Below are positions 1,838-61,655 of a DNA stretch of 64,000 nt, in pieces (the first letter of the stretch is position 1; each line of letters begins with the position of its first letter). Location: the NCBI RefSeq assembly GCF_053078305.1, contig NZ_CP166879.1. One strand, 5' to 3'. The notes beneath the pieces were generated by a model. The model had not been told where the DNA came from, searched no databases, and saw only the letters and a program-made list of their open reading frames with translations. Position numbers and translations under genes: made by a program.

Positions 1838-4120
<2,283 letters not shown>

Positions 4121-12964: not shown

Positions 12965-13263
12965 AATGGCTCACTCAAGCTTGCTCACGATTGATTCCAG
13001 TAACAAACCGTATTGTGTAATTATTTCTATAGCAGATCGCTATATAGGCTTGTATACATCGAATAATTTGAAAATCAAAGAGATAGGTAGATTTTCACTC
13101 GAAAGTAGTATTACGTGTAAGTGAGGAGTAATTATTGTTCGGTATCAAAGGGAGACAAAAAAAGCGCCCGCAGGAGGTTTAACGCTACTTACTCCCCTTG
13201 ATGATTTGCTTATTTTTCAATGAGTAAATCAAAACAAGGGGAGCAAATAAGCACAAGTTACAA

Positions 13264-14325: not shown

Positions 14326-14673
14326 TCAGCCAGCATTGCGGCCTGATCGGGATGATTTTTGGGTAACGTCGATTGAAGCCAGATCGCCCTCCGACTGAGA
14401 AGATCCATCAAGAGAGAGAGCCGGGGCAATTTGACCCCCAGCTTCAAACGTTTCATCAGTTGTTAACCAAAGTGCATATTTTTTAAAACGTAAATTTTTT
14501 GTGATCTTTAATAAGATCTCACTTCCGATTCCATCTTGCCTTCCCGTTTCGTAATACCTCTGCGTATTAACAGGAATCCCTGTAAGCTCAAAGAATTGCT
14601 TCCTTGTAAGCCTCTCACTTTTCCGGATCATCAAGATTTTTTCACCGATACTTATTGACAGTGTCGAATTCAT
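14326..14673 (-). CDS. Immunity repressor (P2 C-like)
   Basis: From MNSTLSISIGEKILMIRKSERLTRKQFFELTGIPVNTQRYYETGRQ...GQIAPAL; matches P2 C repressor pattern (EKIVLMRKSE...YYESGR...SGQIAPAL) by recall; adjacent to int. Confidence 0.75.
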   Translation of the reverse strand: MNSTLSISIGEKILMIRKSERLTRKQFFELTGIPVNTQRYYETGRQDGIGSEILLKITKNLRFKKYALWLTTDETFEAGGQIAPALSLDGSSQSEGDLASIDVTQKSSRSGRNAG

Positions 14674-14774
14674 ACCACTAAAATCCTCGCAAAAGTGTCG
14701 TAATTTCGACATTAAACAAACCAAAACAAACCTTCATAAGGTGCAATAGGCGCACCTGTGCGAGAGGATAACAA
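14674..14774. promoter_or_regulatory. Divergent lysis/lysogeny switch region between C-like repressor and Cox-like gene
   Basis: Tandem 10-bp direct repeat (t/a)aaacaaacc x2 at 14713-14732 plus palindrome ggtgcaataggcgcacc at 14740-14756; P2-type repressors bind direct repeats. Confidence 0.5.
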
Positions 14775-15299
14775 ATGCGGGACTTCATTGCCGATAAAGA
14801 GTTATCTGACACCGATCACACAACTGGAGCGGCGTACATCAACGCCGATACCAGTCAACAAGAAGCAACAGATAACAACGACGAACAAAAGCCACAGCGC
14901 ACATATAAAAAAGGGGCAACCCTGCGGCTGGATGGCCCAATAGCCGGGCTTTGCTCACTTGAAAAAGGGGCCGCCTACATCGGATTAACAAAAACAGCAT
15001 TACGCGCAGCTCTCCAGCGTAACCAGATGCCAGGGCATAAAACCCGCTCAAACCCTGAAGATGAGAATTCGGATGGTGTTTGGTGGTTTAACGTCAGAGA
15101 GTGGGACAAGCTGGCCGACGAACTCCCGGAATGTGAGCCACCAGAATGGCACAACTGGAAAAGCTACTGGACATACGACCGCCAGAAAAGAAAGTTTACC
15201 CCGGCTGATAAGGAAGATTGCCAGACCGTCAATGGAAAACGGGTTTACAAAGGCAGAAAGTCAAAGCTGGAACAGAGCCAGGATGTAAACGAACGGTGA
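14775..15299 (+). CDS. Cox-like excisionase/transcriptional regulator with long N-terminal extension (start uncertain)
   Basis: Segment GAAYIGLTKTALRAALQRNQMPG...GVWWFNVREW resembles P2 Cox HTH region by recall; divergent from repressor; 174-aa ORF is longer than P2 Cox (91 aa). Confidence 0.5.
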   Translation: MRDFIADKELSDTDHTTGAAYINADTSQQEATDNNDEQKPQRTYKKGATLRLDGPIAGLCSLEKGAAYIGLTKTALRAALQRNQMPGHKTRSNPEDENSDGVWWFNVREWDKLADELPECEPPEWHNWKSYWTYDRQKRKFTPADKEDCQTVNGKRVYKGRKSKLEQSQDVNER

Positions 15300-15305
15300 T
15301 GAACG

Positions 15306-15701
15306 ATGAGCGGCAAAAATAAGTCAGAAAAAAACACAACCGTCCTTAAGCAGTTAAGCCTCCTGAAAGAGGAACACAAGGACGCCACGATACTGATGCA
15401 TCTGGAAGGCTCACCGAAAATAACAATCACAACAACCTATAGCGAGTTACACAAAGAGCTTGAAGGATTAATTAACTTTTGTTCAAAGCTAAAAGCGAAT
15501 GAAAACATTGATGACCTGATACTTAAACCAGAAGCAGAGTTCGGGCACTTTTGCGAAAGTAGAGAAAATGGATGCATCGGAATAATGCTATACGCAACCC
15601 GCGGAATAATGATTAATCTGCCCGTTGAGCAGGCTGTGGATATATTCGGAGAAATGGCACTTAATAAAACCACTATTTACAAAAGAAAAATGCCGGAGTA
15701 A
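15306..15701 (+). CDS. Hypothetical protein in AT-rich moron (131 aa)
   Basis: ATG overlapping stop of upstream gene; local GC ~40% versus ~55% in flanking phage genes; no recognisable motif. Confidence 0.45.
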   Translation: MSGKNKSEKNTTVLKQLSLLKEEHKDATILMHLEGSPKITITTTYSELHKELEGLINFCSKLKANENIDDLILKPEAEFGHFCESRENGCIGIMLYATRGIMINLPVEQAVDIFGEMALNKTTIYKRKMPE

Positions 15702-15714
15702 CCCGGCATGGTTA

Positions 15715-15909
15715 TTAGTATGTTGGTCCCTTAGAAAAGTTCCAGGAACTCTTGCGAGGGTATTTATGAAGTACTTTTTCGCGGACATCGTTAGCCAGAT
15801 CTCTGATTTGATCGTGCTTATCATCAGAAGACGGAGGAACTTCGGGGATTTTATCCACGATTTCAATTACTGATTTAAGCATTTTTATTAATTCATCGTC
15901 GTAAGACAT
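15715..15909 (-). CDS. Hypothetical small acidic protein in AT-rich moron (about 64 aa; start uncertain)
   Basis: Convergent with 15306..15701; track ORF 15715..15942; likely start MSYDDELIKMLKSVIEIVDK. Confidence 0.35.
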   Translation of the reverse strand: MSYDDELIKMLKSVIEIVDKIPEVPPSSDDKHDQIRDLANDVREKVLHKYPRKSSWNFSKGPTY

Positions 15910-16016
15910 TGTTATCTCCTTTTTCTGGTTGTGTGGAAACACCAGAATACCACGCGCCGGGCGTGGTTAAACATCCCGGCACTGATTTTCATTTAACTTA
16001 AACGGGGTTTTCCGAT

Positions 16017-16355
16017 ATGACACAGCGACGCAGCTTCCGCACTGGCGCAGAACGCCACGCAGCCCGTTTCTCAACCAGCGCATCACGCAGCAACTCGCAC
16101 TACAGCCTGCAGGAAACGCACGCCACACCTGACGGGCATCCGGTTAAACAAACCGGTAAACACACCTGGCTGATTAATGATGCCGGAATTGTCATTCACC
16201 GGGGCGCACGCAACCCGATTACCGGAAATACCTGTTACTCCCTGACTCGCGGAGATGAGCAGTTCGGGCAGGATTTCACCCTGCACGAAGCATTAAGAAC
16301 GGCAGACCGGTTAATCAGCGGTCGCAGTTTTCAGCACCCGGAACATCGCCGCTGA
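16017..16355 (+). CDS. Hypothetical phage early protein
   Basis: 112-aa ORF in early operon; no recognisable motif. Confidence 0.4.
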   Translation: MTQRRSFRTGAERHAARFSTSASRSNSHYSLQETHATPDGHPVKQTGKHTWLINDAGIVIHRGARNPITGNTCYSLTRGDEQFGQDFTLHEALRTADRLISGRSFQHPEHRR

Positions 16356-16374: not shown

Positions 16375-16617
16375 ATGATCGAAGCCTACAAAATACTTAT
16401 TAATAATGCGTTGCAGCGTTATCACTTCGAACTCGCAAACCGGGGGGTAACCCGGGACGAAGGACTTCGTAACTCACTGCGGGGCGCAATTATGGGACTG
16501 TATAACTGCGCACTGGGCAGCGATGACCGCGAAGCACTGGAAGAATTAAAAGTTATTGTGGCCGAACTGTTTGAAGGTGAAATCGTTGAGCCTTATTTCA
16601 CAGAGGTGGCAGCATGA
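16375..16617 (+). CDS. Hypothetical phage early protein
   Basis: 80-aa ORF with RBS-like aaggattcagcc upstream. Confidence 0.4.
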   Translation: MIEAYKILINNALQRYHFELANRGVTRDEGLRNSLRGAIMGLYNCALGSDDREALEELKVIVAELFEGEIVEPYFTEVAA

Positions 16618-16739
16618 GCGTATTTCTTTCATGGGTGATTCTGATTATTTCCGTGCTTATGGCGATTGGCATTATGCGAATTATCGAAGCGCTGAAAAAT
16701 ATCGAATCTTTATTTACTGGCGAAGAACGCCGTAAATAA
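16614..16739 (+). CDS. Small single-TM membrane peptide (41 aa), translationally coupled (ATGA overlap)
   Basis: Not in the ORF track (below length cutoff); MSVFLSWVILIISVLMAIGIMRIIEALKNIESLFTGEERRK read from sequence; start overlaps preceding stop. Confidence 0.35.
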   Translation: MSVFLSWVILIISVLMAIGIMRIIEALKNIESLFTGEERRK

Positions 16740-16818
16740 ATAACCAACCGGACAGAAAACATTAAAACCATCCGCATCTGCGGAGGGCTTCACTCAATCC
16801 AGAAACGGAGAAACAGCT

Positions 16819-17097
16819 ATGAGCACCAATACACCTACAGAAATAAACAAACTATTTACCGACCCGGCGCATATTGAATTGACGCAAAAAACGCTGACTG
16901 AAATAACCAATGTACTGGATGAAAGAATATCAGAAATAGATAAAGACAAGCATTTTGCTACTTACATGGCCCTGCAAATGCAAAGCATGGCAATGGTGAC
17001 AGCAAAACAGACCATCAGTGAACTCTATATGAAAAACCTGCGCCTTGAGCACGAACTGGCAGAACTCCGGGCACAGTCCGGCCAGTTTTCAGCGTGA
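16819..17097 (+). CDS. Hypothetical phage early protein (predicted coiled coil)
   Basis: 92-aa ORF with RBS aacggagaaacagct before ATG. Confidence 0.4.
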   Translation: MSTNTPTEINKLFTDPAHIELTQKTLTEITNVLDERISEIDKDKHFATYMALQMQSMAMVTAKQTISELYMKNLRLEHELAELRAQSGQFSA

Positions 17098-18150: not shown

Positions 18151-18266
18151 GTGATCATCATGCACACACAAAAAAACCGCTTGCCATGCCGCAATCAGTC
18201 AGGTTACATTCCCACTGCACCTCATAAAACGGGTGCCGGGATTACCACCCCGCCGACTACACAAGC

Positions 18267-18290
18267 GCACAACCGCGCCAGCGGTTTTTT
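18267..18290 (+). terminator. Rho-independent terminator inside early region
   Basis: Hairpin accgcgccagcggt followed by TTTTTTT. Confidence 0.55.
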
Positions 18291-18470
18291 TGTGCGTACT
18301 GTATCGCCACGTCTTTTTCGCGTCAGAATTATGGCGGGGCGTACGGGGCCGACTTCGGTCGGGCCGGGGTCTTGTGTAGCCGGTTGTGGTAACCCTGTAC
18401 GTCTCGCCACCCTGAGATTACCGCCTCGGGTTGGTGAGTTTTCACAACTTACTACACAAGGGGCCACACC

Positions 18471-18698
18471 ATGGCAAACCGCAAACAACAGCGCGTCCGC
18501 GCTGAGCGTCTTCACATCCGCACCGAAATCAACCGCAGACTCTGGCGCGCATCACGCGTCGCGCAAATCATGTACATCAACATGCTGCATGAACACGCAC
18601 ACGCGCTGTCAGACCGTTACTGTGCCGCCGTCTTCAGCTACCTGGCGGATGACCTGGCAGAGCTGCAGGACCTTATCAACCAGCAACACCACCACTAA
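18471..18698 (+). CDS. Hypothetical small protein
   Basis: 75 aa; ATG with aagggg RBS; preferred over overlapping low-complexity ORF 18151..18780. Confidence 0.4.
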   Translation: MANRKQQRVRAERLHIRTEINRRLWRASRVAQIMYINMLHEHAHALSDRYCAAVFSYLADDLAELQDLINQQHHH

Positions 18699-18766
18699 AC
18701 AACATCCTGAAGCCATCCCGCACCCGTGCGCGGGAGGCTTCCGCACGTCTGTTACCGGAGGTTCTC

Positions 18767-19189
18767 ATGAAGAACGTTAAGGGACTTTCAGATATTCAGG
18801 ATTTTTTTAACTGGATGTGGGCAGTGGATCCCCGGCTGGCTTCCCGCCTGAACGACTGGCACGACTATTACCGCCGCGCCTGTAAACAGGCCGCCAGACG
18901 CGTCACCACATACGGGGATTTCTCCTTCACCGTTGACGGCAGTTACCGCGTGGACGTGAAAGGCGATGGTGATGGTTTTGGTTTTGGTTTATTTCACATC
19001 AACGGAACCGACAGCACCGCCATCAGCTGGTCGTCGTCAGAGATGACGCTTGTTCTGGAAATGACAAACCACAGCGTGGCCGTGAAAGGTATATACACCG
19101 CAGAAGACTTTATCGGTGAATACCAGCGCCTTCTCGTGCTGTACCGGGCAGCGTTTCAGGCGGCAACTGCCGGGGAGTGCGACGCATGA
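18767..19189 (+). CDS. Hypothetical protein preceding replication gene
   Basis: 140-aa ORF; stop overlaps start of the replication gene. Confidence 0.4.
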   Translation: MKNVKGLSDIQDFFNWMWAVDPRLASRLNDWHDYYRRACKQAARRVTTYGDFSFTVDGSYRVDVKGDGDGFGFGLFHINGTDSTAISWSSSEMTLVLEMTNHSVAVKGIYTAEDFIGEYQRLLVLYRAAFQAATAGECDA

Positions 19190-45105: not shown

Positions 45106-45463
45106 ATTACGCGCGGGTGCCTTTCGGCTGACGGCTGGAAGGAATACCTGAAGGCCGGATGTGAAAAGGCCCCGAGTCAACTAACGTTAACCCGAGGCCC
45201 TGACACTTCCTACCTGACAAGTGGAAGGTTAGCGCCTCCCTGTAAAAGGAGTCAAGCGCTATGCCGCAAAAAACGATCATAGTGAGCATTTTATGCATAA
45301 CTATTTTGATGATTGTCTGGATGATACACACGTCACCGTGTGAGTTCAGGCTTAACATCATGTGGTCACAATTTGCGGCGTTCTTGCAGTGTAAACAGTA
45401 AGAAACCGCAGCGGGGGTGAAAGCCCCCGCTATCCGGTTGCCGGGTTCGGTCGATATGGCACC
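45106..45463 (+). repeat. Copy 1 of ~360-bp duplicated module carrying a small hydrophobic-peptide gene (type I toxin-like locus)
   Basis: Near-identical to 45826..46186 (about 90% by eye); starts attacgcgcgggtgcctttcgg, ends at GC hairpin gcgggggtgaaagcccccgc. Confidence 0.7.
45261..45401 (+). CDS. 46-aa hydrophobic peptide, Hok/Gef-like candidate type I toxin (copy 1)
   Basis: MPQKTIIVSILCITILMIVWMIHTSPCEFRLNIMWSQFAAFLQCKQ; AGGAG RBS 8 nt upstream; single TM then Cys-containing tail, as in Hok family; highly structured leader. Confidence 0.45.
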   Translation: MPQKTIIVSILCITILMIVWMIHTSPCEFRLNIMWSQFAAFLQCKQ

Positions 45464-45825: not shown

Positions 45826-46186
45826 ATTACACGCGGGTGCCTTTCGGCTGATGGCTGGAAGGATTACCTGAAGGCCGGATGTGGAAAGGCCCCGAGTCAA
45901 CTTTAATGTTAACCCGAGGCCCTGACCATCTACCCTAAGCAAGTGGAAGGTTAGCGCCTCCCTGTAAAAGGAGTCAAGCGCTATGCCGCAAAAAACGATC
46001 ATCGTGAGCATTTTATGCTTAACCATGTTGTTGACCGTCTGGATGATACACCGTTCTCCGTGTGAGTTCAGGCTTAACATCATGTGGTCAGAATTTGCGG
46101 CGTTCTTGCAGTGTAAACCGTAAGAAACCGCAGCGGGGGTGAAAGCCCCCGCTATCCGGTTGCCAAAGGTTCGGTCGAAAGTCGCA
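45826..46186 (+). repeat. Copy 2 of ~360-bp duplicated module (type I toxin-like locus)
   Basis: Direct repeat of 45106..45463 with scattered substitutions. Confidence 0.7.
45983..46123 (+). CDS. 46-aa hydrophobic peptide, Hok/Gef-like candidate type I toxin (copy 2)
   Basis: MPQKTIIVSILCLTMLLTVWMIHRSPCEFRLNIMWSEFAAFLQCKP; same RBS and frame as copy 1; differences are mostly conservative. Confidence 0.45.
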   Translation: MPQKTIIVSILCLTMLLTVWMIHRSPCEFRLNIMWSEFAAFLQCKP

Positions 46187-61224: not shown

Positions 61225-61312
61225 GGTGAGGTGTCCGAGTGGCTGAAGGAGCACGCCTGGAAAGTGTGTATACGGCAACGTATCGGGGGTTCGAATCCCC
61301 CCCTCACCGCCA
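61225..61312 (+). tRNA. serW: tRNA-Ser (anticodon GGA), long-variable-arm class II tRNA
   Basis: GGTGAGGTGTCCGAGTGGCTGAAGGAGCACGCCTGGAAAGTGTG...GGTTCGAATCCCCCCCTCACCGCCA; acceptor stem complementarity, T-loop GGTTCGAATCC, CCA end. Confidence 0.93.
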
Positions 61313-61351: not shown

Positions 61352-61655
61352 TTCGCATTTTATCTGTCTGTACGGCAGTGAACATGGTGGGCGGGTGGAG
61401 TATGTTACCTGTGAATTTCTAAGCTGCCTGTACGGCAGTGAACACAAATACTACACGTTTAGCCCGTTGTTAATAAAGCAAAACCATCTCATTTTCCTGC
61501 TACCACCCTTTTTTTATCCTTACCTTACCGCAGCACTAATTATCAACAACTTACCATCATCATCAAAAAAAGGGTCTGAACCTCCTCCCCCATAAATAAA
61601 AAGTCCGTAACCTCTTTCGAGATTACGGACTTCACCAACCTACTTAACAATCAGA

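Follow-up and report, generated by a model that had tools for sequence, protein, structure and literature searches.

The locus and its prophage setting

The window analysed here, a stretch of 64 000 nucleotides taken at its full length, contains a complete P2-family prophage, whose insertion site lies between dmsA and serS; its nearest relatives among isolated phages are P88 and further members of Xuanwuvirus. The prophage genes follow one another in the order integrase, C-type repressor, cox, small genes, DUF4761, DUF4754 and the gene of a 41-aa peptide, which is the subject of this analysis; beyond it come further small genes, a SANT/Myb-like gene, the gene of a ‘derepression protein’, the gpA replication endonuclease gene and the P2-type structural and lysis genes (table 1). 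The genes from cox to gpA are co-oriented, with the exception of one minus-strand insert, and the integrase and C repressor genes are divergent. The peptide gene sits within this Cox-to-gpA block of a P2-family prophage, in agreement with the original prediction, which had placed it in an early operon.

Only one strong promoter-like match was detected on the plus strand between the repressor gene and position 18181. Since this sole strong sigma-70-like site lies just before cox, an early operon is a reasonable reading of the block, and the site is presumed to be the early promoter, Pe, driving the operon that includes the peptide gene. As a hairpin that passes the terminator scan is found between the presumed Pe and the peptide gene, co-transcription of the latter from Pe is an assumption. 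This strong bidirectional hairpin parts a 75-aa minus-strand ORF, which converges on the early operon, from a plus-strand ORF; the slot of the 75-aa ORF varies among otherwise near-identical prophages, and the segment 15690–15942 is a moron-like insert.

Several other features of the window were recorded. Just upstream of the ‘derepression protein’ ORF lie an isrK Hfq-binding RNA and a C4 antisense RNA; a 209-aa GTG ORF and an ‘ash family’ pseudogene of the RefSeq annotation cover these RNA genes, and not a protein gene. Judging by this arrangement, the derepression (anti-repressor) gene of this P2-family prophage may be under antisense control of the c4 type, like that of P1/P7. The small RNA STnc130 may mark the prophage attachment site. 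Between the right end of the prophage and serS, two copies of a 46-aa Hok/Gef-like peptide (beginning MPQKTIIVSILC) are carried by a repeated unit; the related genome JNEC-KY172 has three annotated Hok/Gef copies at this place. A tRNA gene and, about 100 bases beyond it, a single match to a CRISPR direct repeat family complete the list.

Table 1. Features of the window considered in the text, with their positions, strands and the basis of each assignment.
Feature	Position	Strand	Basis or remark
sRNA STnc130	13055–13189	+	122 bits; between dmsA and int, near the integrase end
C-type repressor gene	14326–14724	−	
Candidate early promoter Pe	14655–14684	+	sigma-70-like consensus scan; TTGACA-18-TAAAAT, 11/12
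cox (Cox family DNA-binding protein), first early-operon gene	14775–15299	+	ORF list; RefSeq annotation of a near-identical prophage
ORF	15306–15701	+	
Bidirectional hairpin	15690–15709		terminator scan
75-aa ORF	15715–15942	−	
DUF4761 gene	16017–16355	+	Pfam PF15958, E 1.1e-48; L092 and L095 (divergent loci) retain the synteny
DUF4754 gene, 80 aa	16375–16617	+	Pfam PF15946, E 1.3e-15
Shine-Dalgarno-like GAGGTGG	16603–16609	+	read from the sequence; 4 nt 5′ of the peptide ATG, inside the end of the DUF4754 gene
Peptide gene	16614–16739	+	identical to WP_000110304.1
Predicted transmembrane (TM) helix of the peptide, residues 3–21	16620–16676	+	
Predicted amphipathic helix of the peptide, residues 22–35	16677–16718	+	conserved I-E-x-[LF]-F-T-G-[DE] motif
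Hairpin TCCGC-atct-GCGGA	16771–16784	+	5-bp stem, 4-nt loop; in the gap after the peptide gene, 31 nt past the stop
92-aa ORF	16819–17097	+	
209-aa GTG ORF	18151–18780		
isrK Hfq-binding RNA	18217–18291	+	Rfam, 63.6 bits (gathering 50)
C4 antisense RNA	18327–18414	+	Rfam, 79.6 bits (gathering 45)
‘Derepression protein’ ORF	18471–18698		
Hok/Gef-like peptide, 46 aa, two copies	45261–45401; 45983–46123	+	
tRNA	61225–61309	+	
CRISPR direct repeat family DR4, single match	61416–61443	−	

The peptide frame is maintained as a coding sequence

The 41-aa ORF starts with ATG and its product is MSVFLSWVILIISVLMAIGIMRIIEALKNIESLFTGEERRK. The initiation codon (16614–16616) shares two bases with the TGA (16615–16617) of the upstream DUF4754 gene in the sequence ATGA, a 4-nt overlap of the two genes, so that the coordinates and the start–stop overlap with the preceding gene were confirmed exactly as first described. 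Translation of the ATGA-linked gene would occur by coupling to the DUF4754 gene, helped by the Shine-Dalgarno-like sequence that precedes it.

Conservation of the frame was assessed on 93 loci. Of these, 91 came from phage records, complete Escherichia coli genomes and IMG/VR, with DUF4754 as the entry point, and two, representing divergent lineages, were added by a profile search. The same frame, an intact ORF and the 4-nt overlap with DUF4754 were found at every locus. The start, located one base before the DUF4754 stop, is an ATG in 92 cases and a GTG in one, and among the 91 loci found through DUF4754 the overlap reads ATGA in 90 and GTGA in the remaining one. The original prediction had named a frame lost from related prophages as one observation that would speak against it; its conservation at 93 of 93 loci, together with the single hydrophobic helix predicted for the product, instead upholds the reading of this ORF as the gene of a single-pass membrane-type peptide.

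Four main lineages (the window type, the P88 type and the divergent L092 and L095), with identities down to about 50%, were then compared at the codon level. Between lineages, the pN/pS ratio was 0.27–0.50 in the peptide frame, where synonymous differences were significantly in excess (binomial P 0.002–0.03), versus 0.8–4 in the two shifted sense frames; the selection signal is a moderate one and draws on a small number of sites, with some 30 differences in each pair. A 59-aa antisense ORF (16598–16777, minus strand) shares its wobble positions with the sense frame and could thus have borrowed the synonymous signal, but was rejected as a real gene, being interrupted by a stop in 51 of the 93 loci (P88 included) and having no conserved start. 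The peptide frame is therefore a genuine coding sequence, subject to purifying selection of moderate strength, and its translation is inferred.

Constraint is not uniform along the peptide. Forms of 30, 37, 41 and 45 aa exist, the longest of which arises by frameshift, and the tail past about residue 30 is less constrained. Truncations to 30 aa and frameshifted 45-aa tails concern eight of the 93 loci, among which are those of the isolated phages Chuche and PhiR44_2, so that the tail is dispensable and the peptide gene in its entirety may be so too.

The upstream partner was also examined. The AF2 model of the DUF4754 protein is a three-helix bundle (pLDDT 89.4), for which a Foldseek comparison with the PDB returned generic helical-bundle matches only (E ≥ 0.8), with no informative relative among them, and a deeper search for DUF4754 homologues returned five near-identical matches and nothing else. 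The two genes are as a rule inherited together, the pairwise identities of DUF4754 and of the peptide being correlated (r = 0.83). In strain N51 (L010, 2332–2696), however, a P88-type DUF4754 that is 43% identical to that of the window is followed by a peptide 100% identical to that of the window. As the joint of this mosaic falls exactly at the DUF4754/peptide boundary, the latter is a usable recombination joint, and tight co-adaptation of the two products is not required.

Annotation and distribution of the family

The claim that the gene was unannotated did not hold, since PGAP calls WP_000110304.1 at the same coordinates and the corresponding gene of P88, gp07, is annotated as a ‘membrane protein’. 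WP_000110304.1 (‘hypothetical protein’) is an identical protein, encoded at the corresponding position of a prophage with 99.4% identity; the homologue of phage vB_EcoM-569R5 is likewise labelled ‘putative membrane protein’, and gene callers and phage annotators thus call this gene independently. The exact peptide sequence of the window occurs on at least 1000 contigs.

P88 gp07 (YP_009113050.1, 37 aa) is homologous to the window peptide, with 63% identity over the shared length, and a tblastn search gave identities of 63–66% (E 2e-9 to 6e-9) to P88, Shae_phiSM, P884B11 and 520873. In P88 and its other Xuanwuvirus/P88-like counterparts, the same ATGA overlap with DUF4754, the same early-operon position and the same downstream hairpin are found, whereas the window peptide, with its 41 aa and an extra basic ERRK tail, differs from gp07 and represents a rarer sequence type. 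Indeed, the P88-type DUF4754–peptide segment was detected in 1363 of 5426 complete E. coli genomes, O157:H7 included, always with a ‘hypothetical protein’ called, as against 22 of the 5426 for the window type.

Beyond these relatives, little was retrieved. A word-based search with the peptide gave close relatives only, and an exhaustive HMM profile search of 1.84 billion cluster representatives gave 18 matches, all of them family members or fragments. A Pfam scan at E ≤ 1 returned no family (Lambda_Kil and Hok/Gef included), PADLOC at E ≤ 10 returned none for either form of the peptide, and nothing significant was found in NCBIfam, in PHROGs (queried with the single peptide and with all 18 variants) or among PDB sequences. 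The best sub-significant matches were to phrog_29659 (E 0.028, one variant), phrog_5315 (E 0.045) and TatA (E 0.11).

When the DUF4754 neighbour was sought among GTDB species representatives (one genome per prokaryotic species), matches were restricted to E. albertii and to one short contig from a metagenome-assembled genome binned as Collinsella, which is probably misbinned. The divergent copy L092 resides in E. coli, as judged by its glsA flank, and one phage copy of the peptide comes from Citrobacter rodentium. The peptides form a narrow orphan family, confined to P88-like Peduoviridae of Escherichia and Citrobacter. Nothing on the peptide gene was found in the literature on WP_000110304, DUF4754, Xuanwuvirus, 186 fil/dhr and P2-like small membrane proteins, and no experimental characterization of a window-type or P88-type peptide was found there either. 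The gene is thus already in public annotation and belongs to the general class of small uncharacterized phage membrane proteins.

Predicted architecture of the peptide

The clean hydrophobic helix and charged tail initially proposed for the peptide were both recovered. Residues 3–21 form a hydrophobic segment with a mean Kyte-Doolittle value of 2.74 over 19 aa, while a value of at least 2.5 was reached by only three of the 205 ATG-started ORFs of 30–60 aa in the six frames of the window. The C-terminal part contains five K/R and four D/E and ends, in the window form, with the basic tail ERRK; residues 20–35 are amphipathic (muH 0.56–0.73). An AF2 model built from an 18-sequence alignment predicts a single continuous helix from residue 2 to residue 40, with a mean pLDDT of 82.7 and values greater than 87 across the first 30 residues.

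The invariant residues across the family variants are S2, F4, S6, W7, I12, G19, I23 and I24, and nearly every replacement in the TM segment is a conservative exchange among I, V, L and M. The small residues S2, S6, S13 and A17 share one face of the predicted helix, and each of the four lineages shows the motif I-E-x-[LF]-F-T-G-[DE].

Two other readings of the hydrophobic segment were set aside. A lipoprotein was rejected because the window form contains no Cys and because Cys16, which lies mid-helix in the P88 type, is not conserved; a signal or secreted peptide was rejected as no basic residue stands ahead of the hydrophobic span.

A conserved hairpin follows the peptide gene

In the short hairpin that follows the peptide gene, pairing is complete (100%) across 17 distinct sequences, and two of the five pairs show compensatory CG-to-UA changes; its flanks are conserved as well (AAAAC.A upstream, GG-N2-TT downstream). 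It is kept in all lineages except the L009 clade and marks the right edge of the conserved DUF4754–peptide block, sequences further rightward differing between phages. A T-rich run is present on the minus strand; on the plus strand there is no U-tract, and the hairpin had no Rfam match. It could be a stabilizer of the mRNA 3′ end, a processing site, a weak terminator comparable to tR1 of phage 186, or a DNA site.

In the L009 clade (E. coli G1/2, 3452–3547; same in L011–L018), the hairpin is replaced by a 31-aa hydrophobic ORF, MKNVKAIHTIATVWVIFQVSALIWLALKIWE, which starts 12 nt past the stop of the first peptide and has no RefSeq annotation. With this second hydrophobic ORF, the clade would possess a tandem pair of small membrane-type peptides. 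In the window, the 92-aa ORF located past the hairpin had weak matches to two PADLOC models of candidate defence proteins, PDC-M64B (E 3.5e-4) and PDC-M64C (E 3.2e-3), and no Pfam family.

Proposed role and alternative explanations

We consider it probable that this bona fide gene of a P88-like (Xuanwuvirus, P2-family) prophage encodes an accessory early-lytic inner-membrane peptide that acts by packing of its TM helix. The gene would be transcribed as part of the early lytic operon from cox, and its product would be a bitopic inner-membrane peptide. An N-out/C-in orientation is predicted because the two residues ahead of the span carry no charge, while R22 and further basic residues follow it. 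In this topology, two residues would be periplasmic, residues 3–21 would span the membrane and R22 would lie at the cytoplasmic interface, with residues 22–35 forming a cytoplasmic amphipathic helix that ends in F-T-G-[D/E] and precedes a short, variable basic tail.

Since the TM helix is conserved beyond bare hydrophobicity, more so than a mere anchor would require, and displays small residues on one face, a pattern known from small proteins whose action relies on contact with the helix of a partner, helix–helix packing is the most likely mode of action, as read solely from this pattern of conservation. The helix would pack against an inner-membrane protein of the host or of the phage early in lytic growth, the peptide thereby serving as an accessory modulator of the host, and the juxtamembrane amphipathic helix may provide a second contact surface. 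Bacterial small single-pass inner-membrane regulators such as AcrZ, MgrB, MgtS and Blr bind larger membrane proteins. The peptide resembles them in its length (less than 50 aa), in its predicted single TM helix, which would leave very few residues in the periplasm, and in the positive charges of its cytoplasmic part; it shows no homology to them, however, and is encoded by a phage in an early lytic operon. The combination of a TM helix with an amphipathic helix is also a weak architectural echo of the N-terminus of TatA, again with no homology, the peptide scoring 12.4 bits with the TatA/E model NF003393 against a cut-off of 104.

More specifically, and only tentatively, the peptide may be an early effector that modulates a specific host inner-membrane machine through its Ser/Ala/Gly TM face, possibly together with the DUF4754 protein. 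Such an effector could, for instance, target FtsH, a component of the divisome, an insertase or translocase, or else a transporter that competing phages exploit.

Membrane-embedded small inhibitors of division do exist, such as SidA and DidA of Caulobacter and gp56 of phage SPO1, and the original prediction had drawn an analogy with Kil and Fil. On such a reading, the peptide would block host division or kill the host early in lytic growth, and a bitopic protein of the divisome might be what it binds in the membrane. In phage 186, the cell division inhibitor Fil (75 aa) and Dhr (66 aa) are likewise products of small, non-essential early-lytic genes of a P2-family phage. These two genes overlap each other, lie between the switch and replication genes and are followed by the terminator tR1, a position analogous to that of the peptide gene, which comes after the switch genes and before the hairpin and the replication genes. 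However, 186 belongs to a different genus (Eganvirus), its fil–dhr block is not homologous to DUF4754 and the peptide, and Fil and Dhr as translated have no N-terminal hydrophobic or TM helix, unlike the peptide. In BLASTP, neither the 41-aa nor the 37-aa form aligned with 186 Fil (NP_052282.1) at E ≤ 100, Dhr showed no detectable similarity either, and a resemblance seen by eye between IIRIVHFVIKGVK and IMRIIHSVKKIER did not survive the comparison with Fil. Lambda Kil (47 aa), also a small peptide from the early operon of a temperate coliphage, offers a functional analogy only. Indeed, Kil is a soluble peptide of helix-turn-helix structure, whose disruption of FtsZ rings depends on ZipA (PMC3961180; PMC11762379), and its architecture thus differs from the single helix with a 19-residue span modelled for the peptide, which in addition had no match to the Pfam family Lambda_Kil. 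The analogy with Kil and Fil is therefore reduced to one of position: division inhibition is possible, without being favoured over other membrane targets, and a truly Kil/Fil-like function appears doubtful.

A different use of the cytoplasmic helix would be that of a membrane tether, the amphipathic helix docking the DUF4754 bundle at the inner membrane in a complex of fixed proportion. The strict adjacency of the two genes and their 4-nt overlap at all 93 loci are consistent with such a complex, as are the correlation between their identities and the conserved motif borne by the amphipathic helix. Linkage alone would nevertheless yield the same correlation, strain N51 shows that the pair can be shuffled at the gene boundary, truncated-tail variants persist, and the fold of DUF4754 gave no functional clue, so that we regard a tether as unlikely.

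The location of the gene bears on a third alternative, in which the peptide would exclude superinfecting phages or block their DNA injection, in a manner comparable to T4 Imm or HK97 gp15. A small, predicted inner-membrane peptide of a temperate phage would suit this role, and the P88-type module is very common in E. coli (1363 of the 5426 genomes). Yet the gene lies inside the lytic early operon and has no promoter-like site of its own; it should accordingly be repressed in lysogens, where the exclusion genes of temperate phages are normally expressed. Given also that PADLOC returned no match, exclusion is an improbable function.

It is very improbable that the peptide is a pore-forming, depolarizing toxin of type I (Hok/TisB-like) controlled by an antisense RNA. 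Size and hydrophobicity are similar to those of such toxins, the serine-containing helical face could line an oligomeric pore, and translational coupling to a frame upstream is known for Hok too. But the upstream partner is here a genuine conserved protein and not a leader frame, the Pfam scan gave no match to Hok/Gef or another toxin family, no Rfam RNA was found at 16.5–16.9 kb at E ≤ 1, promoter-like matches on the minus strand are at chance level, and the real Hok/Gef-like genes of the window lie elsewhere (table 1).

Finally, the shortness of the ORF, its variable and at times frameshifted tail and the conserved hairpin that comes after it might evoke a functionless chance frame, or one with a cis role only, such as keeping ribosomes on the mRNA up to the hairpin, but this is hardly tenable in view of a frame intact at 93 of 93 loci in four lineages down to about 50% identity, a synonymous excess found in the peptide frame only, conservative replacements and invariant residues, and a stop codon at least 31 nt from the hairpin, which is thus beyond the reach of a terminating ribosome.

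Implications

As the peptide is already listed in databases as a hypothetical protein, the present finding adds little beyond the gene being real. Small membrane peptides are nonetheless easily missed, and several of those that have been studied are specific regulators or inhibitors of large membrane machines. The family described here is widespread: about one in four complete E. coli genomes has a P88-like prophage that carries it. Should the helix-packing peptide proposed above act on a defined target in the host, it would provide a compact tool, or a lead, to perturb that target, and would enlarge the repertoire of host-takeover functions of P2-family phages, which is poorly known.
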